Assembly (NCBI GenBank): GCA_017610205.1
Contig: JAFCCL010000002.1
Coordinates: 71,481-135,480 of the forward strand
DNA length: 64,000 nucleotides
DNA from: Candidatus Iainarchaeum sp.
GTDB lineage: Archaea; Iainarchaeota; Iainarchaeia; Iainarchaeales; GCA-2688035
Reading direction: 5' to 3'
The notes under the pieces are model-generated. The model worked only from the letters and a program-made list of their open reading frames with translations. It was not told where the DNA came from and did not search any database. Position numbers and translations under genes: made by a program. Below, piece after piece: positions 6,435-62,412 of this stretch; positions within the stretch are counted from its first letter, which is position 1; each line of letters begins with the position of its first letter.

Positions 6435-6698
6435 TTAAACCTCCATGACATTTTTTACAAGAATAATTGAATTCAGACACCAGTTAATGGAAGCCCTCAT
6501 TGCAACTGCATCCTGTGCTTTAATATTAATGGAAATGATTCTGTTTTTAATACCAAGTGAAATTGTGCTTCTTTTCAAATGCCTTGCACTAATATCAGGA
6601 AAAATCGTCTTGTAGGCAATACTTGCACCTTTTTCATTTGAAAAATGAAGATTTAGGCAAAGTTCAAATTTATCTTGCTTTGATATCCTTTGCGACAT
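6435..6698 (-). CDS. pcc1: KEOPS subunit Pcc1-like
   Basis: 87 aa. ...AQDAVAMRASINWCLNSI... resembles the Pcc1 core. It sits between rpoP and pfdB as in the archaeal superoperon. Confidence 0.5.
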   Translation of the reverse strand: MSQRISKQDKFELCLNLHFSNEKGASIAYKTIFPDISARHLKRSTISLGIKNRIISINIKAQDAVAMRASINWCLNSIILVKNVMEV

Positions 6699-17688: not shown

Positions 17689-17760
17689 TGAACCCTGCGG
17701 AAATTGAACCCGCGGTCTCCCAATTGCCAACCGAGCGTCATACCACTAGATTAAGAGCCC
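17689..17760 (-). tRNA. Degenerate tRNA-Ala(GGC)-like copy (probable tRNA pseudogene)
   Basis: 72 nt, about 85% identical to the tRNA-Ala at 18107-18178. It has 3 G.U pairs in the acceptor stem, a broken D-stem, and a weakened anticodon stem. Confidence 0.4.
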
Positions 17761-17917: not shown

Positions 17918-18107
17918 GGACCCTGCGGAAATTGAACAGCCTTTTAGAAAAAGGCTGGCTAAAATCACAACTACCACAAGGAACCCATTTCGCTTGGGCT
18001 CAATGGGTCAGTGGACCCTGCGGGAATTGAACAGCCTTTTAGAAAAAGGCTGGCTAAAATCACAACTACCACAAGGAACCCATTTCGCTTGGGCTCAATG
18101 GGTCAGT
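17918..18107. repeat. Two perfect-to-near-perfect 95-bp tandem units, each ending in the 3'-terminal 20-mer of tRNA-Ala
   Basis: Units start at 17918 and 18013; the third 20-mer starts at 18108 and begins the tRNA. Each unit contains an 8-bp hairpin (AGCCTTTTagaAAAAGGCT) and a 7-bp stem (ACCCATT...AATGGGT). Confidence 0.85.
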
Positions 18108-18178
18108 GGACCCTGCGGGAATTGAACCCGCGGTCTCCCGATTGCCAACCGAGCGTCATACCACTAGACTAAGGGCCC
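18107..18178 (-). tRNA. tRNA-Ala(GGC) with G3:U70 identity pair
   Basis: Reverse complement reads GGGCCCTTAGTCTAGTGGTATGACGCTCGGTTGGCAATCGGGAGACCGCGGGTTCAATTCCCGCAGGGTCCA. Anticodon loop is TTGGCAA. CCA is not encoded. Confidence 0.75.
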
Positions 18179-43799: not shown

Positions 43800-44120
43800 T
43801 TGATTCCAAAATTTGGATTATCGGAAATCCCTAATCCGACAAAGAGTTTTCTAAGACGTCTTGGGTTTAACCTTCAACAAGTTAGAGAGTTTGGCTTTGA
43901 AGAAATCAAAGAACAACTGCTTAAAATTTCTAATTCTGAGAAAACAGGGTTAAATAAAAGGGAAAAGCAAGTTGTAAAATTAAGGCTTGATGGAAAAGAC
44001 GGTTCTGAAATAGGAAAAGCTTTGAGTAGCAGTAGGCAGTGGGCTAGTAAGTTTCATACAAGTGCAATAAAAAAGATAAAAATACAGCTTGAAAAAAAGC
44101 GCCCTTCCTCTGGGACTTAA
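43800..44120 (+). CDS. Small sigma-70-region-4/LuxR-like HTH protein
   Basis: LNKREKQVVKLRLDGKDGSEIGKALSSSRQWASKFHTSAIKKIK. The stop overlaps the mcm stop convergently. Confidence 0.4.
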   Translation: MIPKFGLSEIPNPTKSFLRRLGFNLQQVREFGFEEIKEQLLKISNSEKTGLNKREKQVVKLRLDGKDGSEIGKALSSSRQWASKFHTSAIKKIKIQLEKKRPSSGT

Positions 44121-47100
44121 TCCTTCCTTGTTGGCTTTAAGAAATTGTGCCTTGGCCTGTATAATTCACCATTCTTTTCAAGCTTTTGAATCAGGTCTCT
44201 CGCCCTTTCCTTATCAATGCCTTCAGAAACAGCTTCGTTTAATACATCCTGCAATGGAACATTGTCCATTTCAGCTGCCTTTTCTCTCAAAATTGAAAGA
44301 ATCTTTCTCATATTTGTTATCTGAGTATGAGTTTGTCCGGTCATAATAATGTCATAATCTATTTTTCCTGTTTCAGGATCTGTTACAACATCGCTCAAAC
44401 TTGCCTTAACAAGCTTTATAGCTCTTTCAGCATCCTCTTTTTCAGCAGTGTCTGAAAGCCTTATTCTTGCACTTGCCTCTGCAAGCCTTACAAGCCCTTC
44501 AAGCTGCCTGTGAGTAGCAGCATAGCTTCCCTCTTTTCTGCCAATATCCCTTAAACCAATATAAAAATCCCCAATTGCCTGAATTGCTTCCTTGCTCATC
44601 ACAGGAAAAATATTTTGCCTTGTAAAAGAAATGTACTTTCCCAAAAGCTCTGGGTCAACAGGCGGGGTTGAAATTAATTCAATGTCTTCCTGGTCTTCCT
44701 TTTTGAGAGCATTTCCTTTTTTCTTGTACTGTGAAATTAATTCACCGCTTTTGTGAGTTTTCAAAATGTGTGCTGTTATGGCTTCGTCCTTTGTCCTGTC
44801 CAACACATCCTTTATCATAAAGAAAAGGTCAAATCGTGAAATAAGCGATGCAGGCAAATTAATTTGTTCAATGAAAGGAGTATATTGTTCAAACCTTGAC
44901 ATTTTGGGGTTTGCAGCAGCAAGAATGCTTGTGTCAGATTTAAACCTTGTTACAATTCCGGCTTTTGCAACCGAAATCATTCCCTGCTCCATTGCCTCGT
45001 GCATTGCACTTCTGTCCTCTGCATCCATTTTGTCCAATTCATCAACCATGCAGATTCCGCCACTGCTTAAAACAAGAGCTCCTGCTTTTAGAGTCCAGCC
45101 TCCTTCACCAAAATCATCCTTAACAGCCGAGGCAGTGTTATGGACAAAAATTCCATTTGCAATAAAATTATGATCTTTTTTAACAGAAAAATCGTAAACA
45201 AATTCATAGCATGGCTTGAAGCATTCTTTTTCTGACACCTCTTCCCATAGGATATCAGATTTTGCAAGCTGTTTAAGCAATAAATTATTAAAAGATTTTT
45301 TTCTAACAAACTTTTGAAGTTTTTTTCTTGAAATGTTTAACCTTCCACTGCTGTAAATCCATTCTGCGTTTTGGTTTTTTAGCAATTGATGTATACTTGG
45401 AATTATATCAATGTTTGTATTTTCCTCAGGTGCTTTTGAAATAAGTTCTCTTAACTTTTTCTTTTTTTCTACAAGATTGAATCCTATTTGCTTTTCAAAT
45501 GTTTCAATGTTTTTTTTGCCTCTTATTTCAGTATAATACTGGTCATGGCTGCTTGTTACAGAAATTTTTTTTTCTACGGCAATTTTTTCGGCCTTTTTCC
45601 TTTTTCTCAGCTTGCTCTGGATTCCAAATTTAAGCAATGCCAAATGAAGACTTTTTGCAAGCCCTTTGCTTATTGTAGTAATTCCAACACTTGAAGAATA
45701 GTTTTTCCCAATGACAACCCAGCCATCAGTATCAAAAAGACCTTGTAACAACTTTGCCAAAATATTATTTGGCATTTCTGTTGCAAGATGCGAGATTCTT
45801 ATCCTGGTTTTGTCACGATTAAGCCCAAATGCCTTCAATAGCTCACATACAACCCTATAGCTGATTCTTCTCGCAGGCACTCTAAAACCGTCGTTAATTT
45901 TTTCAGGAAGCAAACCAAACAGTTCCAAAGATATGGCATCAATTTCTTGTAGCAGTTGTTCAGTAGCACTGAATATTCTTATTGTTGAGGTGCCGTTGCC
46001 TTTTTCCCAAAGGCTTCCGTCTCCAAGCGCAAGACCTGCAAGATATGCAAGTTTTTCATTATCAAGGTATATTGGAATTTTCATTGGCTTTCCATGGTTT
46101 ACAAAAACCTCAGAAATCTGTTTTGATATGTCCTCCAAAGAAAACCCAGCTTCTTGACTCAATTCAATTAAATTTTTAAGAGAAATTGCATGATAGTGTC
46201 GTTTGTTTCTTATAGCATAGATGGTATCCCTGCTTTTGCCAATTTTTTTTGCTATTTTCTGCAAAGACCCGTAATCTTTAACAAGAATGTCTGTTATTTC
46301 TTTCAGTAATTCAGCAACATTATCTTTCACCAGAATGTTTTTGTCATTGGCAAGCAAGCTTATTGAAGGAATGTTTTTTTTGTTTCCTTCAGGCAATTTT
46401 CTTGGACACGCAACAAAATCCCCTTTTCCAAGGTCTTCTGATTTAACCCATTCAATTTTGTTGTCTTTTAATCTAACAAGCGAAGTGTTTGGAGTGAGCT
46501 CTATTTCTTTCCCAAGCCTTGTTTTAATTCTAATCATTTCTTCAGGTGCCTTTATTTTCCAAATTTTGTAAATATCTTCCTTTTCAAGCTTCAACTTTGA
46601 ACCCAAACAATGGCTTTTTCCGCTAAAATTATTTGCCCAAGCATTTGGAATTTCTTCAACCGAATTTTCTTCACAAAAATTTTCTTCAACAAAATCCTTA
46701 ATTGGCTTGAAACCGTTGTCATTAAGAATTAAGGAATCCGGAGCTACACACAAACCCACACCAGAAGTTGTCTTTCCAGCAGTGTAAATGCTTCTTGGAG
46801 CAATATTGTGAGAAGACTGAAGGATTTGACTCTTTCCTGTTCCAGGATCTCCAACCAGCAAAACATGAACATTGCCCCTGATGGTTTGGTTTCCCGGCAA
46901 ATGCTTTTTGACTCCTCCAAAAAGCTGCAGTATAATTGATTCCTTTACAGTTTCGTGCCCATAAATTGCAGGCGCAATGCTTTTTGTAAGCTTTTCATAA
47001 ATTTCAGGATTTTCTGCCAAAGCCCTTATTTCGTTCTCCTCCTCAGGCGTTACCTCAACAGATTCAAATTCCCGCTGGGTTTCCTCCAAATGCAATGCCT

Positions 47101-47833
47101 CCAAATACCTTCCATAAATTGTTTTCTTTTTGTCAGGCAAAGCAAGCCTTAAAATTCCAACAAACCTTGTTTTGTCACCTGCACTAATTCTGTTAACCAA
47201 ATCGTCTGCAATATAAATATTAAGAGTTGAAGCCTGTTCATTTCCCTTAAGCTTTTCCAAAGGCTCCTGAATTTCAATTCTTTGACTGTCAATAAATTCT
47301 GATTGCTCTGGCACAAGCTCAAAGTCTCTGTGCCTGCACTCGCAAAAAGAAGGCATTTGAAGCTGCTGGTTATCCTGCTTTTTCTTATAAGTGTTGCCAC
47401 AGTGCTTGCATTTCCACACTGCAAGCTGTAATTTTGGCATAACTGTTGTAATTTGCCTTACAATACCTTCAACAGCAATAAGCTTTCCCAACTGCTTTGC
47501 ACTAATGTCTCTGACAAGGGGCTCGTGTTCTTTTGGCAAATTAAAAAAACGAACGTGTGGTGAAAATTTTTCAATTTCAAGAGCAGGAACCTCTATTTGT
47601 TCAACTGCATCCTTTGCAGCCTCCAAAAGAAGTTCAGGGCGGTCAAGAACTGCATCAGCAAGCTCTATGTCAAACCTCTCCAAAAGAGTAAAGTCAATAT
47701 CAAGGCTTCTTTTGTCAGGATAGTTTTCAACAAGCCTTTCAAGCTCTCTTTTGTAATTTGCTTCAAAAAATTCCAAGAATTTGGAAACGTAAGGGCTTTC
47801 ACTGTCCTCCCTGATTTTTTCCTCCAAAGACAT
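44117..47833 (-). CDS. mcm: MCM replicative helicase containing a 538-aa LAGLIDADG intein
   Basis: 1238 aa. Zn finger CKHCG...CEC, Walker A GDPGTGKSQ, arginine finger SRFDL. The intein lies between ...TSGVGL and TASAVKDD.... Confidence 0.9.
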   Translation of the reverse strand: MSLEEKIREDSESPYVSKFLEFFEANYKRELERLVENYPDKRSLDIDFTLLERFDIELADAVLDRPELLLEAAKDAVEQIEVPALEIEKFSPHVRFFNLPKEHEPLVRDISAKQLGKLIAVEGIVRQITTVMPKLQLAVWKCKHCGNTYKKKQDNQQLQMPSFCECRHRDFELVPEQSEFIDSQRIEIQEPLEKLKGNEQASTLNIYIADDLVNRISAGDKTRFVGILRLALPDKKKTIYGRYLEALHLEETQREFESVEVTPEEENEIRALAENPEIYEKLTKSIAPAIYGHETVKESIILQLFGGVKKHLPGNQTIRGNVHVLLVGDPGTGKSQILQSSHNIAPRSIYTAGKTTSGVGLCVAPDSLILNDNGFKPIKDFVEENFCEENSVEEIPNAWANNFSGKSHCLGSKLKLEKEDIYKIWKIKAPEEMIRIKTRLGKEIELTPNTSLVRLKDNKIEWVKSEDLGKGDFVACPRKLPEGNKKNIPSISLLANDKNILVKDNVAELLKEITDILVKDYGSLQKIAKKIGKSRDTIYAIRNKRHYHAISLKNLIELSQEAGFSLEDISKQISEVFVNHGKPMKIPIYLDNEKLAYLAGLALGDGSLWEKGNGTSTIRIFSATEQLLQEIDAISLELFGLLPEKINDGFRVPARRISYRVVCELLKAFGLNRDKTRIRISHLATEMPNNILAKLLQGLFDTDGWVVIGKNYSSSVGITTISKGLAKSLHLALLKFGIQSKLRKRKKAEKIAVEKKISVTSSHDQYYTEIRGKKNIETFEKQIGFNLVEKKKKLRELISKAPEENTNIDIIPSIHQLLKNQNAEWIYSSGRLNISRKKLQKFVRKKSFNNLLLKQLAKSDILWEEVSEKECFKPCYEFVYDFSVKKDHNFIANGIFVHNTASAVKDDFGEGGWTLKAGALVLSSGGICMVDELDKMDAEDRSAMHEAMEQGMISVAKAGIVTRFKSDTSILAAANPKMSRFEQYTPFIEQINLPASLISRFDLFFMIKDVLDRTKDEAITAHILKTHKSGELISQYKKKGNALKKEDQEDIELISTPPVDPELLGKYISFTRQNIFPVMSKEAIQAIGDFYIGLRDIGRKEGSYAATHRQLEGLVRLAEASARIRLSDTAEKEDAERAIKLVKASLSDVVTDPETGKIDYDIIMTGQTHTQITNMRKILSILREKAAEMDNVPLQDVLNEAVSEGIDKERARDLIQKLEKNGELYRPRHNFLKPTRKD
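45137..46750 (-). mobile_element. MCM intein with LAGLIDADG homing-endonuclease domain
   Basis: Begins CVAPDSLIL (Cys1) and ends FVHN, with Thr at +1. Internal YLAGLALGDGSL and LLQGLFDTDGWV motifs. Confidence 0.8.
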
Positions 47834-52704: not shown

Positions 52705-54570
52705 ATGGCTACTGGAAAAGGTGTTGAATCAACAATTATTAATGCAGAACACCTTGCAAAAGAATTTAAAGAACACTCTGTTGCAGAATTCTTTAAGAAA
52801 AACAAGCAAATGCTTGGACTCTACGGAAAGGTAAGGACTCTTACAACAGTAATTCATGAATATGTTACAAACTCTCTTGATGCATGTGAAGAGGCAAACA
52901 TTTTGCCGGAAATTCAGGTTAAAATTTCAGAAATTGCAACCGAGTATTATGAAGTTGAAGTAAAAGACAACGGACCAGGGCTAACAAAGGAAACTGTTGG
53001 AAAAGCACTGGGTCAGCTTCTTGCAGGCACAAAATTTCACAGAATGATTCAGTCAAGGGGACAGCAGGGAATTGGATCAAGCGGATGTACTATGCTTGCC
53101 CAAACCACAACAGGAAAACCATGCAGGGTAATTACAGGAACAGGAAAGGGAAAGCCAATAAGCCTTGAACTAAGTATTGACCCAAAGCACAATTTGCCAA
53201 AAATAACAAACATGAAAGAAATTGACCGAAATTTTAGGGGGCTTGCAGTGCAGGCAAAATTCAAAGGCATGCTATACAGGGATTCAGAACAAGGACCATT
53301 GGAGTACTTGAGAAGAACCGCAATTGCAAACCCGCATGCGGAAATAAAATTTAGAGACCCAACAGGGCAAAAATTTATTTTTAAAAGAAGCGCTTCAAAG
53401 GTTCCAAAGCCACCAATTGAAGTAAAGCCCCACCCCAAAGGAGTAACAGTTGACGAAATTGTCACAATGTCAAAATACAGCGATGCAAGAAAGGTAAGCA
53501 GCTTTTTGAGAACAGACTTTGACAGGATGGGACAAAAAAGCCTTGAAGGAATCACCAAAAGAGTTTCCTTTGACATGAACAAAGACCCAAAGCAATTAAG
53601 ATGGGACGAAGCAGAAGAAATTGTCAAAGCATTTAAGGAAATTGACTTCATTGCACCAAGCTCTGATGCCCTAAGACCAATTGGAGAGGAAAGAATTACA
53701 AAAAGTCTTCAAAATATTGTAGACCCTGAATTCATGCATGTTCTTACAAGAAAACCACAGGTTTACGCAGGAGGATTTCCATTCCAGGTAGAGGTTTCAA
53801 TAGCATACGGAGGAAAAGCAGGAAGAACAATTAGTGGCAGTGCTTCAGACGGACCACAGAAAAGACTTGAAATAATGCGGTTTGCAAACAGGTCACCGCT
53901 GCTTTTTGACGCAGGAAACTGTGCAATTACCAAAGCAGTGCACAGCATTGACTGGAAAAGATACGACATAAAAGACATTGACAATGCACCAGTAACAGTT
54001 CTTGTAAATTTTATCTCAGTATACATTCCATACACAGGAGCAGGAAAACAGGCAATTGCCGACGAAGACGAAGTAATTGAAGAAATAAGACTTGCACTAA
54101 TGCAGTCAGGAAGAAAAGCAGGAAGGTATATCTCAGGAAAAAGAAAAGAAGCAGAAAGACTAATGAAACGAGAATTGTTCTACAAATATATTCCTGAAAT
54201 TGTTTACGCATTAAATGCAATTACAAAAACCGACAAAGACACATTGGACAAAAAGCTCAGAAAAATGGTTTTGCTAAAACTAAAACTTGACGACGAAAAA
54301 GAAGCAAAAGAAAACGCAGAAAACGGAAAAGGTGAAGGAATAGAAATAGCAAAAAAAGAAAACGCCCACGCAAAAAGCGTGCCTGAAAAAACAGAACAAA
54401 AAACTGAAGAAAAAGCAGAAAAGGAAAGCAAAAAAAAAGCAGAAAAAGAAACCAAGGAAAAAGCAACGCAGGAAAGTAAAGCAAAGGAAACAAAAGAAGA
54501 GCATAAAACCAAGGAAAAAACAAAGGGCAAAAAAGCAAAAAGCCAACACGCAGGAAAAAAAGGAAAATGA
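52705..54570 (+). CDS. top6B: DNA topoisomerase VI subunit B with ~90-aa K/E-rich C-terminal tail
   Basis: GHKL ATPase N-box (YVTNSLDACEE) and G-boxes, transducer domain. Tail KEAKENAENGKGEG...KKAKSQHAGKKGK ends at TGA. Confidence 0.9.
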   Translation: MATGKGVESTIINAEHLAKEFKEHSVAEFFKKNKQMLGLYGKVRTLTTVIHEYVTNSLDACEEANILPEIQVKISEIATEYYEVEVKDNGPGLTKETVGKALGQLLAGTKFHRMIQSRGQQGIGSSGCTMLAQTTTGKPCRVITGTGKGKPISLELSIDPKHNLPKITNMKEIDRNFRGLAVQAKFKGMLYRDSEQGPLEYLRRTAIANPHAEIKFRDPTGQKFIFKRSASKVPKPPIEVKPHPKGVTVDEIVTMSKYSDARKVSSFLRTDFDRMGQKSLEGITKRVSFDMNKDPKQLRWDEAEEIVKAFKEIDFIAPSSDALRPIGEERITKSLQNIVDPEFMHVLTRKPQVYAGGFPFQVEVSIAYGGKAGRTISGSASDGPQKRLEIMRFANRSPLLFDAGNCAITKAVHSIDWKRYDIKDIDNAPVTVLVNFISVYIPYTGAGKQAIADEDEVIEEIRLALMQSGRKAGRYISGKRKEAERLMKRELFYKYIPEIVYALNAITKTDKDTLDKKLRKMVLLKLKLDDEKEAKENAENGKGEGIEIAKKENAHAKSVPEKTEQKTEEKAEKESKKKAEKETKEKATQESKAKETKEEHKTKEKTKGKKAKSQHAGKKGK

Positions 54571-54583
54571 AAGAGTGAATTAA

Positions 54584-57199
54584 ATGCCGGAAAAAAAAGC
54601 AAAGAAAAAAACAGCCAAGGTTTCAAGAGAAAAAGAAACACCAAAGCAAATTGTCACAAAAATAGACAACATGGCAAAAGGCATTGTTACAGAAATTAAA
54701 AAAGGCACCGACCCAGAATTTGTCACCCAGCAAAGGGGAAGAAGCAATGTTGAATTTGACGAAAAAAGAGGCATACTGCAATTGGGAGAGAAAAGAACCA
54801 CAAGAAACTTTTTGAACGTAGGACATGCAAAAAAATTTATGCAAACAATGCTTGTTTCAGCAAAAGCACATGACTACTTAAAGCACAACAAAACCGCTTC
54901 AATCAGAGAAATTTATTACGAATTAAAACACACTGTTCCAAACACAAAAGAAAACACTTTTGACAACCAAACCGAATCAGACTCATGCATTGTAGACCTT
55001 GAACATAGTGTTGACACAATCAGAGAGAAGCTAAACCTGCATGCAAACCCAAAAGGAACACTTTACGGTGACGTAGTCTTAAAGGACAAAGTCCACCACA
55101 ACGACAAATTCAACTGCGGAAAGCTTGGAAGAGGCGGGTGGAGCATTATGTCAAGGCTTGAACCGGAAGAAATTGAAATTGTTTCATGCAATGCAAAATA
55201 TATTCTGGTAATAGAAACAGCAGCAATGTATGAAAGACTTGTAGAGGAAAAATTTCCGCAAAAAAACAAATGCGTCCTTATTGGAACAGGAGGACAGGCA
55301 GCAAGAGGAACAAGAAGGCTTATTCACAGACTGCACAAGGAAAAGAAACTTCCGGTATTAGTGTTCAGCGTTGATGGTGAAGAAACTATTGTACTCGAAG
55401 AAGATGGTTTGATTAAAAATGTTCAACTAAAAGAGCTAATGAAAAACAAAGAAATTGTAAAAATTGACGGAGTTATTGAAAATGAAAGGGCAGGAATAAA
55501 CGCAAAATCAATGTGCTTTGATAATAAGAAAACAGGCTTTGGGCAAATAAATCAGATAATAAGGCATCCGATTGTTGAAGACCTTTTTGAAGTAAAAACA
55601 GATTTGGGTTACAGTGTAAAAACAACAAAGTCACATAGCCTAATCGTCTATGACTCTAAGAAACACGAGTTTGCGGAAAAAACACCTCTGGAAGTTGATT
55701 TGGAAAAAGATTTTGCAGTAGTAAGTCTTGATGTTCCAAACAACGAAAGCCTGGAAAGAATTGACTTGGGAAGATTTGTATTTAATCATGCAAATGCTAA
55801 AGTAAACAAAGAGAGGATAACAAACAAGAAAAATAAGCTTTCAATTCCAAGATTCATTGATAAAGAAAACCTGCCGGACTTTTGCAGATTGCTTGGGTAT
55901 TATGCAGCAGAAGGATACGCAGAAGAATACAATACCGTTTTCAGCTTCAGCAAAAAAGAAATAGATTACATTAAAGATGTTGCAAATATAACAAAAACAT
56001 TATTTGAATTAGAAACAAAAGAATACAACCCACATAGCACAGAAACACAAGTAAAAATCCATAACACCCTGCTTTCAACAATTTTCAAAAACATTGCTTC
56101 AACAGGTTCAGGAAACAAAAAAGTGCCTGACATTGTATTCAATGTTCCGACAAAAGCTAAAAAAGAATTTTTGAAAGGCTATTTTAGGGGAGATGGCAGA
56201 GTAGATTTCAAGAAAGAAAAATCATCTGTCGAGCTCTGGGCAAAAACAGTAAGCAAAAAACTTGTCTATGACTTGGTTTTGCTTATCTCACAGATTGGTG
56301 CAAATGCAACAATCCAATACCCGAAAGAAAGCGAGGAAGAGCACGAAGTCGAAATGGAAACTGCTTCAGGAATCCAAAAAACAAAGATTGCTGCAAAGCA
56401 AAAACCCTACCTTGTAAGCATTGCAAACAAAGAGGCCTTGCTTGAGTTGAAAGATATTGTAGCAGAACTCAGACCGGAAGCGTTGGAACATATAGAAAAC
56501 AATTATATCAAAACACCAAAAATTGACAGCTTGCCAAGAGAGTTTGTTGAGAAATTTAGAGAAACCTTTAGAAATGAGTTCAGGGGCGAGCTTGAGAAAA
56601 AATTGCCTCCAGCAACATTTCAATGGCCAAGAATTTCAAAGAAAAAACTGCGCAGGCTACTCAATGGCAGGGATTTAAGCAAAAATTTACAAGTTTTAAA
56701 AGAGTTTGCTAACAACAAAACGACACTTGCAAGAATAAAAAGTGTGGAAAAAACCGAACCAAAAGATAAATATGTTTACGACATAGAAATGGCAAACACA
56801 CACAGGTTTTTCTCAAACTTCATTTGTGTTCACAACACAGATGGAGACCCTTATGGATGGTATATTTACAGCGTAATAAAACAGGGTTCAATGGCATTGG
56901 CAGCCCACTCAACTTTTATGGCCTGCCCTGAAGCAAAATACATTGGAATGACTTTAGACGACATCGAAACATACCAGCTTCAAAACGTTACAGAAAGAAT
57001 GAAGGAAGGAGACATAAAAAGAGCAAAAGAAATGATGGAATATCCCTGGTTCCAAAACAAAGACTGGCAAGCCCAGCTGAAAAAAGCATTAAAGGAAAAG
57101 GTTAGAATAGAACAGCAGGCACTGGCAAACAAAAGCCTTGAATTTGTTGCAACAGAATACCTTCCAACAAAAATCAAAAACAAAGACTTTTTGCCATAG
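54584..57199 (+). CDS. top6A: DNA topoisomerase VI subunit A (Spo11 homologue) containing a 490-aa intein
   Basis: 871 aa against about 370 expected. Exteins ...KLPVLVF | TDGDPYGWYIY... restore the Toprim motif. Confidence 0.9.
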   Translation: MPEKKAKKKTAKVSREKETPKQIVTKIDNMAKGIVTEIKKGTDPEFVTQQRGRSNVEFDEKRGILQLGEKRTTRNFLNVGHAKKFMQTMLVSAKAHDYLKHNKTASIREIYYELKHTVPNTKENTFDNQTESDSCIVDLEHSVDTIREKLNLHANPKGTLYGDVVLKDKVHHNDKFNCGKLGRGGWSIMSRLEPEEIEIVSCNAKYILVIETAAMYERLVEEKFPQKNKCVLIGTGGQAARGTRRLIHRLHKEKKLPVLVFSVDGEETIVLEEDGLIKNVQLKELMKNKEIVKIDGVIENERAGINAKSMCFDNKKTGFGQINQIIRHPIVEDLFEVKTDLGYSVKTTKSHSLIVYDSKKHEFAEKTPLEVDLEKDFAVVSLDVPNNESLERIDLGRFVFNHANAKVNKERITNKKNKLSIPRFIDKENLPDFCRLLGYYAAEGYAEEYNTVFSFSKKEIDYIKDVANITKTLFELETKEYNPHSTETQVKIHNTLLSTIFKNIASTGSGNKKVPDIVFNVPTKAKKEFLKGYFRGDGRVDFKKEKSSVELWAKTVSKKLVYDLVLLISQIGANATIQYPKESEEEHEVEMETASGIQKTKIAAKQKPYLVSIANKEALLELKDIVAELRPEALEHIENNYIKTPKIDSLPREFVEKFRETFRNEFRGELEKKLPPATFQWPRISKKKLRRLLNGRDLSKNLQVLKEFANNKTTLARIKSVEKTEPKDKYVYDIEMANTHRFFSNFICVHNTDGDPYGWYIYSVIKQGSMALAAHSTFMACPEAKYIGMTLDDIETYQLQNVTERMKEGDIKRAKEMMEYPWFQNKDWQAQLKKALKEKVRIEQQALANKSLEFVATEYLPTKIKNKDFLP
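55367..56836 (+). mobile_element. Top6A intein (Ser1 ... HisAsn, +1 Thr) with LAGLIDADG endonuclease domain
   Basis: Starts SVDGEETIV and ends FICVHN|T. Internal LLGYYAAEGYA and FLKGYFRGDGRV motifs. Confidence 0.75.
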
Positions 57200-60992: not shown

Positions 60993-61138
60993 ACATAGTA
61001 GTTTCCACAATCTTCTTGTTCATAATGTCAGTGGTGTTCTTGCAGATTGTAGAACTTAACTTGGAAGACACAGAAATCCTAACCTATGCTGTTGGGTTCT
61101 GTATTGGTATAACAAGTGAGTGGTGGTTTCCAATATGA
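60989..61138 (+). CDS. 49-aa single-TM small protein
   Basis: MNIVVSTIFLFIMSVVFLQIVELNLEDTEILTYAVGFCIGITSEWWFPI. ATGA overlaps at both ends. Confidence 0.35.
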   Translation: MNIVVSTIFLFIMSVVFLQIVELNLEDTEILTYAVGFCIGITSEWWFPI

Positions 61139-62412
61139 AATCACCGGAAACCCACTCTCCAAAGCGCCTTAAAAGGCAAGCGGGAAAATCTATGAGAGTA
61201 AGGAAAATGAACAAGGAAGATTTGACTAAAGAGTTGCTTGAGGAACTTTACAACAAGAAAGGTTTCTCTCTCGACCGAATTGTCAAAGAAGTTGGTTGTG
61301 AAAGAACAATAGTCTACAATCGTTTGAAACAATTTGAGATAAAAATGAGGCCTCCTTATAGAAAAGATCTCAAAATAGAAAAAGAAGTTTTGGAAAAGCT
61401 TTACTGGAAACAAGGATTTTCTTTTGAAGAAACAGGAAAAAAGCTTGGTTGTTGTGGGGCAAATGTTTCTTATTGGATGAAAAAGCATGGAATAGAAACA
61501 AGGCCAATTGGATACAATGAAATTGTAATTCCAAAAGAAACTCTTCAAGAGCTTTATTGGGATAAAAAATTGACAGCACAGCAAATTGGAGAAAAATTTG
61601 GGACTAATCACAGAAGAATTTTAAAAAAGATGAAAAAGGCAGGAATTGCAAGCAGAACATTGTCAGAAGCAGGAACAAAAAAATTCAAAGCGCCATTCAC
61701 AGGCGGCTTAGACGAAAAAGCATTCCTGTTAGGACTTAGAACAGGAGACTTCTACGCAAAACAGCAGCACATATCTGTGAGAATGCAAACTACATCCACA
61801 CATCCAGCACAAGTCGAACTACTAAGAAAGTCACTTGAAAAATATGGCGAAACAAAAACGTACTATAACACAAACAAAGCAAGAGAAGATGAATGGTTTA
61901 TTTATGCTGACCTTGATAAGTCTTTTGAATTTCTTTTAAAGAAACCAAATGAAATCCCTCAATGGATTCTAGAAAATAAGAACTGCTTTTACAGTTTTTT
62001 GTGTGCATATTCAGACTGTGAAGGAAGCTTTAGTATTATCAAAAGCTATGAAAATAGTACGAGGTTTATATTCAGAATAACAGCAGGCGACAAGAAGGTT
62101 CTTGAACAGATAAAAAGCACATTAGAATCTTATGGATACAACCCAAGACTCTACTTTAAGTCAAAGAAGGGCTTACAAGGAACTTTTGGTACATTTAACT
62201 TGGATATGTACAACTTTATAATGTACAAAAAAGAAGAAACACTTAGCTTGATAAAAAATTTATTTCCACACAGCAAACACAAGGAGAAAATTGACAAGAT
62301 GAAATACATTCAAGAAAACAAAGACAAGAACTGGGCTGAAATAATTGGAGGATGGAACAAAATTAGAGAGGGGATAAAAGCAGGGTTGTTAAAAAACAAT
62401 TTACAAGAATAG
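61135..62412 (+). CDS. Free-standing LAGLIDADG-type homing-endonuclease-like protein with three N-terminal NUMOD1/sigma-r4-like HTH repeats
   Basis: Three repeats of the form (L/V)LExLYxxKGFSxxxIxKExG...V..RLKxxGI. The C-terminal domain has LLGLRTGDF and FLCAYSDCEGSF motifs. The ATG at 61135 is coupled to the upstream stop. Confidence 0.6.
   Translation: MKSPETHSPKRLKRQAGKSMRVRKMNKEDLTKELLEELYNKKGFSLDRIVKEVGCERTIVYNRLKQFEIKMRPPYRKDLKIEKEVLEKLYWKQGFSFEETGKKLGCCGANVSYWMKKHGIETRPIGYNEIVIPKETLQELYWDKKLTAQQIGEKFGTNHRRILKKMKKAGIASRTLSEAGTKKFKAPFTGGLDEKAFLLGLRTGDFYAKQQHISVRMQTTSTHPAQVELLRKSLEKYGETKTYYNTNKAREDEWFIYADLDKSFEFLLKKPNEIPQWILENKNCFYSFLCAYSDCEGSFSIIKSYENSTRFIFRITAGDKKVLEQIKSTLESYGYNPRLYFKSKKGLQGTFGTFNLDMYNFIMYKKEETLSLIKNLFPHSKHKEKIDKMKYIQENKDKNWAEIIGGWNKIREGIKAGLLKNNLQE

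Follow-up and report, generated by a model that had tools for sequence, protein, structure and literature searches.

What interrupts the gene for the A subunit of topoisomerase VI (Topo VI; Top6A) in a 64,000-nucleotide stretch of Candidatus Iainarchaeum sp. DNA (contig JAFCCL010000002.1, positions 71,481 to 135,480 of the forward strand, assembly GCA_017610205.1; hereafter the window), and could the gene still yield a normal enzyme? The gene occupies 54584..57199 (+) and encodes 871 amino acids (aa) plus a stop, according to the open reading frame (ORF) listing and to Pfam and NCBIfam. Our answer, which we hold with high confidence, is that its sequence encodes a putative class-1 intein with a LAGLIDADG homing endonuclease, lying in frame between Phe261 and the Thr of LVF/TDGDPYG (a slash marks a junction or insertion point throughout) in the Top6A of a DPANN (Iainarchaeum/Diapherotrites-like) archaeon.

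Direct translation of the 871-aa ORF gives the junctions ...KKLPVLVF/SVDGEETIV... and ...RFFSNFICVHN/TDGDPYGWYIY, which bears out a first-pass annotation of this DNA that had proposed an insert at residues 262-751 (nt 55367-56836) with Ser as residue 1, a His-Asn end and a following Thr. The insert so delimited (490 aa, 1470 bp; 55367..56836, +) has the layout of a Hint splicing domain into which a LAGLIDADG endonuclease and a further helical/beta region are set. Upstream of it lies an N-extein of aa 1-261 (54584..55366, +) that ends LPVLVF, and downstream a C-extein of aa 752-871 plus stop (56837..57199, +) that opens, at the +1 residue Thr752, with the Toprim DxD motif TDGDPYGWYIY. The whole protein scores 495.4 bits against the NCBIfam Top6A equivalog NF003333 (cutoff 465), in two stretches with a break at aa 262, and Pfam reports TP6A_N (4.4e-15) and TOP6A-Spo11_Toprim (5.5e-53, again in two separate stretches). 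The N-extein contains the 5Y-CAP domain, and the Tyr-Tyr pair at extein aa 111-112 aligns to Y105-Y106 of Top6A from S. shibatae (2zbk_A), whose catalytic Tyr we take to be Y106; the Toprim Glu of the extein is E211, within LVIETAAM, and the DxD motif consists of D263 and D265. With a 5Y-CAP domain that includes the catalytic Tyr, the Toprim Glu and the DxD motif all present, the host is, judged by sequence, Top6A.

Deletion of residues 262-751 leaves a 381-aa extein that aligns end to end, with no gap at the junction, to solved Top6A structures (S. shibatae 2zbk_A, 6e-75; M. mazei 2q2e_A, 1.5e-49; and also M. jannaschii 1d3y_A), the alignment running through ...klpvlvftdgdpygwyiysv.... The restoration of LPVLVF-TDGDPYG on removal of the insert, as claimed in the first pass, is confirmed by these gapless alignments, and the extein is equally contiguous against an empty allele of 89% nucleotide (nt) identity, described below.

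Models of inteins match the insert far beyond chance and over their cutoffs, for both its Hint and its LAGLIDADG parts. Pfam Intein_splicing (PF14890) covers aa 270-751 (4.9e-18, 65.8 bits vs. a cutoff of 35.8), and NCBIfam TIGR01445 (intein_Nterm) reaches 26.5 bits (cutoff 24.5). Blocks A, B, F and G, which the first pass had left to be checked, were each found, and the key residues within them do not vary across five aligned inteins of the same allele that are 56-69% identical. In block A (SVDGEETIVLEED; 55367..55405, +) these are S1, the predicted first nucleophile, together with V2, D3 and G4; in block B (GYSVKTTKSHSLIV; 55607..55648, +) they are T87 and H90 of the TxxH motif T87-K-S-H90; in block F (YVYDIEMANTHRFFSN; 56771..56818, +) they are D472 and H479, within VYDIEMANTHRFF; and in block G, which follows downstream (FICVHN; 56819..56836, +), they are the penultimate His489 and the terminal Asn490. 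Ser1 was seen at every inspected N-junction of the Top6A F/TD allele. These features predict a canonical class-1 intein; its set of splicing residues is complete, and its position is precise and in frame. In base composition the intein is slightly richer in AT (GC 0.350, vs. 0.387 for the extein and 0.377 for the window), which is not decisive.

Between the splicing blocks, the two LAGLIDADG motifs noted in the first pass were found as LLGYYAAEG and LKGYFRGDG. Motif 1 (block C, FCRLLGYYAAEGYA; 55880..55921, +; LLGYYAAEG at intein aa 175-183) carries the acidic E182, and motif 2 (block E, EFLKGYFRGDGRVD; 56165..56206, +; LKGYFRGDG at intein aa 269-277) carries the acidic D276; between them lies block D (NKKVPDIVFN; 56114..56143, +) with K251 and P254, and block H reads LVLLISQIGANATI. 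E182, K251, P254 and D276 are invariant in the five-intein alignment, and Pfam LAGLIDADG_3 (PF14528) matches at 2.7e-12 (47-49 bits vs. a cutoff of 22.5). The insert therefore appears to carry a homing endonuclease of the monomeric, two-motif LAGLIDADG type, each motif ending in a putative catalytic acidic residue.

Sequence searches of the PDB with the intein return PI-PkoII, TFIIB mini-inteins, a V-ATPase intein and PolII inteins, and an AlphaFold2 model, computed from an alignment of the family (mean pLDDT 76.6, pTM 0.71), has the predicted fold of an endonuclease-containing intein. Its full-length Foldseek matches are TliVMA (7qss, 1.6e-22), PI-PkoII (2cw7, 9e-21), PI-PfuI (1dq3, 5e-16) and PI-SceI. 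TliVMA/PhoVMA (7qss, 7qst), PI-PkoII and PI-PfuI match the model over its full length (E 1.6e-22 to 5e-16, TM about 0.6-0.68) and share with the window intein the common Hint-endonuclease-Hint layout of archaeal endonuclease inteins with two LAGLIDADG motifs; the LAGLIDADG core of PI-PkoII matches in sequence as well (6.5e-17). However, these inteins are only 14-17% identical to it in sequence, and their hosts are V-ATPase, DNA polymerase and RNR. The window intein also differs from them at aa about 320-450, from the endonuclease to the C-terminal Hint half, where it has no close sequence match; in the model this part (residues ~320-450) forms beta hairpins and a helical bundle at lower confidence, and by its position we infer a likeness to the additional DNA-binding parts found in large archaeal inteins. 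The N-terminal splicing half has its best sequence match (5e-11) in the Methanocaldococcus TFIIB mini-inteins (5o9i, 5o9j), with similar block A (VDYSEPIIIKEKGEIK vs. VDGEETIVLEEDGLIK) and block B; unlike the window intein, the solved chains are mini-inteins, reside in another host and are only about 26-28% identical over 130 residues.

What would splicing achieve at this position? Following the established class-1 pathway, an N-O acyl shift at Ser262 would form an ester with Phe261, the hydroxyl of Thr752 would attack that ester (trans-esterification), Asn751 would cyclise with the aid of His750, and an O-N shift would link Phe261 to Thr752 to give LPVLVF-TDGDPYG. Splicing would thus release the 490-aa endonuclease and leave a normal Top6A of 381 aa. 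Because the insert parts the VLVF strand from the acidic DxD loop, the precursor before splicing probably neither binds Mg2+ nor cleaves DNA; it should thus be inactive and splicing obligatory for Topo VI function.

Such dependence invites the idea of a conditional switch, in which splicing would answer temperature, redox, DNA damage or substrate and so regulate Topo VI after translation. The insertion exactly at the Mg2+-binding DxD motif, so that activity must depend on splicing, fits this idea, as do the presence of a second intein elsewhere in the window, in the MCM gene, and the functional reasons argued for the clustering of inteins in replisome proteins in the main text of Novikova et al. 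(PMC4760082). We nevertheless regard a switch as improbable: we saw no hallmark of conditional splicing (for instance, a regulatory disulfide involving residue 1 or +1; both nucleophiles there are oxygen), and nearly all close relatives lack the intein, which is therefore not needed for regulation.

The distribution of the insert among relatives bears on its mobility. The spliced extein, used as a query, matches 3073 proteins at E <= 1e-30; the top 120 of these are 72-95% identical and 368-399 aa long, none of the 120 contains an intein domain, and those that are named are labelled 'Candidatus Diapherotrites archaeon'. The closest (P0164; 95% aa identity) is intein-free and is encoded on two contigs, here L002 and L003. 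On L002 (GCA_030634785.1), Top6B lies directly upstream of the intein-free top6A, as in the window, and L003 shares downstream gene families with the window, namely an AMP-binding acetyl-CoA synthetase-type gene and an H+-pyrophosphatase. The L002 gene is 89% identical at the nt level to the spliced window gene and runs uninterrupted through GTATTAGTATTC/ACTGATGGTGAC, the exact codon boundary at which the window has its 1470-bp insert, which makes the insert a clean in-frame presence/absence polymorphism. In a homing cycle, the endonuclease would cut intein-free top6A around ...GTATTAGTATTC/ACTGATGGTGAC... and recombinational repair would copy the intein in, which would explain its sporadic distribution.

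The same allele recurs in other genomes. The intein alone retrieved 13 proteins, one of them labelled Micrarchaeota; the eight best (56-86% identity) all contain a Top6A Toprim domain, and wherever one of the eight spans the insertion site, its intein occupies the same Top6A position. Across GTDB, scanned with one genome for each species, the allele turned up in six metagenome-assembled genomes (MAGs), four labelled 'Candidatus Iainarchaeum' and two only 'archaeon', with intact reading frames in all six and complete S...HN/TDGDP junctions in five, the sixth being cut by a contig end. Could the insert instead be dead and unable to splice, or the product of a chimeric assembly, with this top6A copy a pseudogene? 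The exact 871-aa protein was not found in the gene-position index, as such an artefact would have it, but the representative library holds an identical protein (P0014), the ORF is intact across 871 codons, and this architecture recurs independently in about 14 further proteins or loci, mostly from 'Candidatus Iainarchaeum' MAGs, always in the form S...HN/T. Conservation of all splicing residues and strong purifying selection likewise speak against a dead insertion, which we consider very improbable.

Purifying selection is seen when the window intein is compared with its counterpart in the relative L001 (GCA_053536035.1, JAIYIB010000041.1): replacement differences (pN) are far rarer than silent ones (pS), both over the whole intein (pN 0.12, pS 0.70) and in the endonuclease core (pN 0.14, pS 0.71), so that the whole element clearly appears, from this contrast, to be under purifying selection. 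Identities of intein and extein to those of the window are decoupled in other carriers. The intein is the more conserved part in P0006 (intein 56%, extein 36%) and P0002 (69% and 56%), and the less conserved in P0003 (62% and 72%) and P0004 (56% and 78%). The P0006 values indicate transfer between diverged hosts, and the pattern as a whole points to horizontal transfer mixed with vertical descent.

The most substantial rival to an active homing intein draws on these same comparisons. It holds that the intein splices but that its endonuclease is inactive, the element being kept only by vertical inheritance, since it is hard to delete precisely from an active site that is essential. The P0003 and P0004 inteins, more diverged than their exteins, are as vertical descent predicts. 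L001 has a nonsense codon at the conserved Lys ahead of the GYFRGDG core in the second LAGLIDADG motif, and the junction shows no sign of co-conversion. On the other side, both catalytic acidic residues and the block D Lys are invariant, pN in the endonuclease core is far under pS, the P0006 and P0002 inteins are more conserved than their exteins, and relatives of 95% identity lack the intein. Because of this second group of observations, recent gain or loss fits better than long-term fixation, and we rate an inactive endonuclease as unlikely, though well ahead of the other alternatives.

Some of the data still weigh against a splicing intein with an active homing endonuclease. In L001, the in-frame TAA lies at 6597-6602, at the conserved Lys of FL(K)GYFRGDG, and splits top6A into two called ORFs of 533 and 307 aa; it could reflect decay of the endonuclease, loss of Top6A or a consensus error in the MAG, and unless the L001 MAG is in error, at least some copies of the intein may be decaying. 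No co-conversion tract is seen beside the junction against the empty allele of L002 (identity 0.93 vs. a mean of 0.89). Silent divergence (dS) from L001 has reached saturation, which leaves the dN/dS of about 0.07 approximate and only the contrast of pN and pS meaningful. The structural model, finally, has low confidence at the C-terminal 9 residues and in parts of residues 320-385.

Is an intein in Top6A new? The first-pass annotation had suggested a rare or new insertion site, and this is a reasonable guess: neither of two intein surveys, by Novikova et al. (PMC4760082) and Soucy et al. (PMC4071816), names Top6A among the hosts in its main text. The allele is not unique to the window, however, with unannotated copies in public MAGs. 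A low-count entry in the supplement of Novikova et al. 2016 is possible. The topoisomerase hosts in the main texts of the two surveys are Top6B, TopA, GyrB and reverse gyrase; for Top6B, Novikova et al. (PMC4760082) give 15 cases, and Soucy et al. (PMC4071816) include a top6B allele. The Top6B inteins of Halobacteria and other archaea are mobile elements of this class too and likewise interrupt topoisomerase VI, but they reside in the other subunit, a GHKL/transducer protein and not a Toprim protein. A gyrase phylogeny mentions that inteins were removed manually from several Top6A/Top6B sequences, with the subunit unspecified (PMC9348778). We found no description of a Top6A intein in the searchable full-text literature, although a prior listing, for example in InBase, is possible. 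The NCBIfam matches included 'intein-containing' exception models for GyrA and Tes and none for Top6A, and the window gene and its relatives are unnamed or 'hypothetical protein' in current annotation. Mechanism and architecture are thus textbook, while the host protein and site are poorly documented or undocumented in searchable literature.

How widely Top6A is colonised emerges from an exhaustive representative search with the whole 871-aa precursor. Among the best 150 matches, 47 are at least 560 aa long, and for 31 of these 47 BLAST finds Top6A extein flanking a large extra segment on one or both sides, or adjoining extra sequence. Inspection of junctions in metagenome proteins assigned at least eight intein sites in public metagenomes, five of them within a few residues of the metal ligands, Toprim Glu and DxD. 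The window's own site, F/TD, is also used by the distant members P0015, P0016, P0017 and P0026, all with Ser1 and 134-224 bits to the window intein. At the DxD motif, insertions occur at TD/SDP (P0029, P0032, P0035, P0053, P0071 and P0099) and at TDGD/SYG (P0018); around the Toprim Glu they occur two residues ahead of it at VL/CVE (P0020 and P0023) and directly behind it at IE/CGG (P0044 and P0101). The remaining sites are NE/SD in the 5Y-CAP domain (P0024 and P0063), GVWA/SD (P0040, P0049, P0089 and the Thaumarchaeota MAGs L010 and L011) and SG/SANAAH (P0112 and P0080). Residue 1 is Ser rather than Cys at six of the eight sites.

Inteins at the same F/TD site are closest to that of the window (134-705 bits), whereas those at neighbouring sites score 30-76 bits and those at distant sites up to 126 bits. 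We therefore reject the sliding of one intein among F/TD, TD/S and TDGD/S: adjacent-site inteins resemble that of the window no more than distant-site ones do, which argues for independent invasions of the Top6A sites. The multi-site pattern is absent from the searchable text of published intein surveys. The chances seem to us evenly balanced that Top6A is an unrecognised intein hotspot, in which case the window would be one instance of a systematic and so far undescribed spread of inteins into the catalytic centre of this archaeal homologue of Spo11.

At the F/TD site, the inteins of P0015, P0016 and P0017 are 50-80 residues longer than that of the window, with an extra segment between the endonuclease and the C-terminal splicing half that by eye looks winged-helix-like (e.g., ...LAQRLGIKYITAYRSLKRLEKAGLAKS...), and the P0017 intein ends Ser-Asn instead of His-Asn. 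At the GVWA/SD site, the soil Thaumarchaeota MAGs L010 (VBPK01000218.1) and L011 (VBPP01000145.1) carry their Top6A inteins at WLGVWA/SVTGDEP...LVLHN/SDIVKYKL, 25-26% identical to the window intein over full length.

For annotation, the gene and its relatives are better labelled intein-containing Top6A, and for phylogeny the intein must come out ahead of any Topo VI or Spo11 tree. For intein biology, the window adds a host protein and an insertion site, the Toprim DxD loop, and supports the rule that inteins settle where enzymes of replication and DNA topology have their catalytic motifs; with its several independent sites, Top6A offers a natural data set on intein site choice, and multi-site colonisation of the Toprim centre is the most publishable angle. 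Protein engineering may find interest, of an incremental kind, in the oxygen nucleophiles Ser1 and Thr+1 and in a new LAGLIDADG specificity. The understanding of how inteins or Topo VI work is unchanged by the finding.

In the window, Top6A is the second gene of a two-gene topoisomerase VI operon, 13 nt downstream of Top6B (52705..54570; 621 aa), which has HATPase_c and the Topo-VIb transducer domain and in which the Pfam scan found no intein. Top6B of L001 (2677-4971; 764 aa), by comparison, has an Intein_splicing match; with an intein in Top6B of L001 and none in that of the window, either Topo VI subunit appears open to invasion independently in this lineage. The window Top6B ends in a Lys/Glu-rich low-complexity tail of ~95 residues (about 54280..54570, +; …KEAKENAENGKGEG…KKAKSQHAGKKGK), and the Top6B of the close relative L002 is 589 aa long, 32 residues shorter by a comparison of lengths made without alignment.

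The MCM helicase gene of the window (44117..47833, -; 1238 aa) has its own 538-aa LAGLIDADG intein at about 45137..46750 (-), in the P-loop domain at ...TTSGVGL/CVAPDS...GIFVHN/TASAVKD. Kinship between the MCM and Top6A inteins was rejected, since they are only 23% identical, which argues for two independent intein invasions within the 64-kb window. Elsewhere in the window, two tRNA-Ala(GGC) genes lie ~350 bp apart (17689..17760 and 18106..18178, -), and a 430-aa ORF (61120..62412, +) has repeated HTH-like N-terminal segments, a weak LAGLIDADG_3 match (6e-5, aa 292-352) and no Hint domain, and may encode a LAGLIDADG or HTH protein that stands alone.

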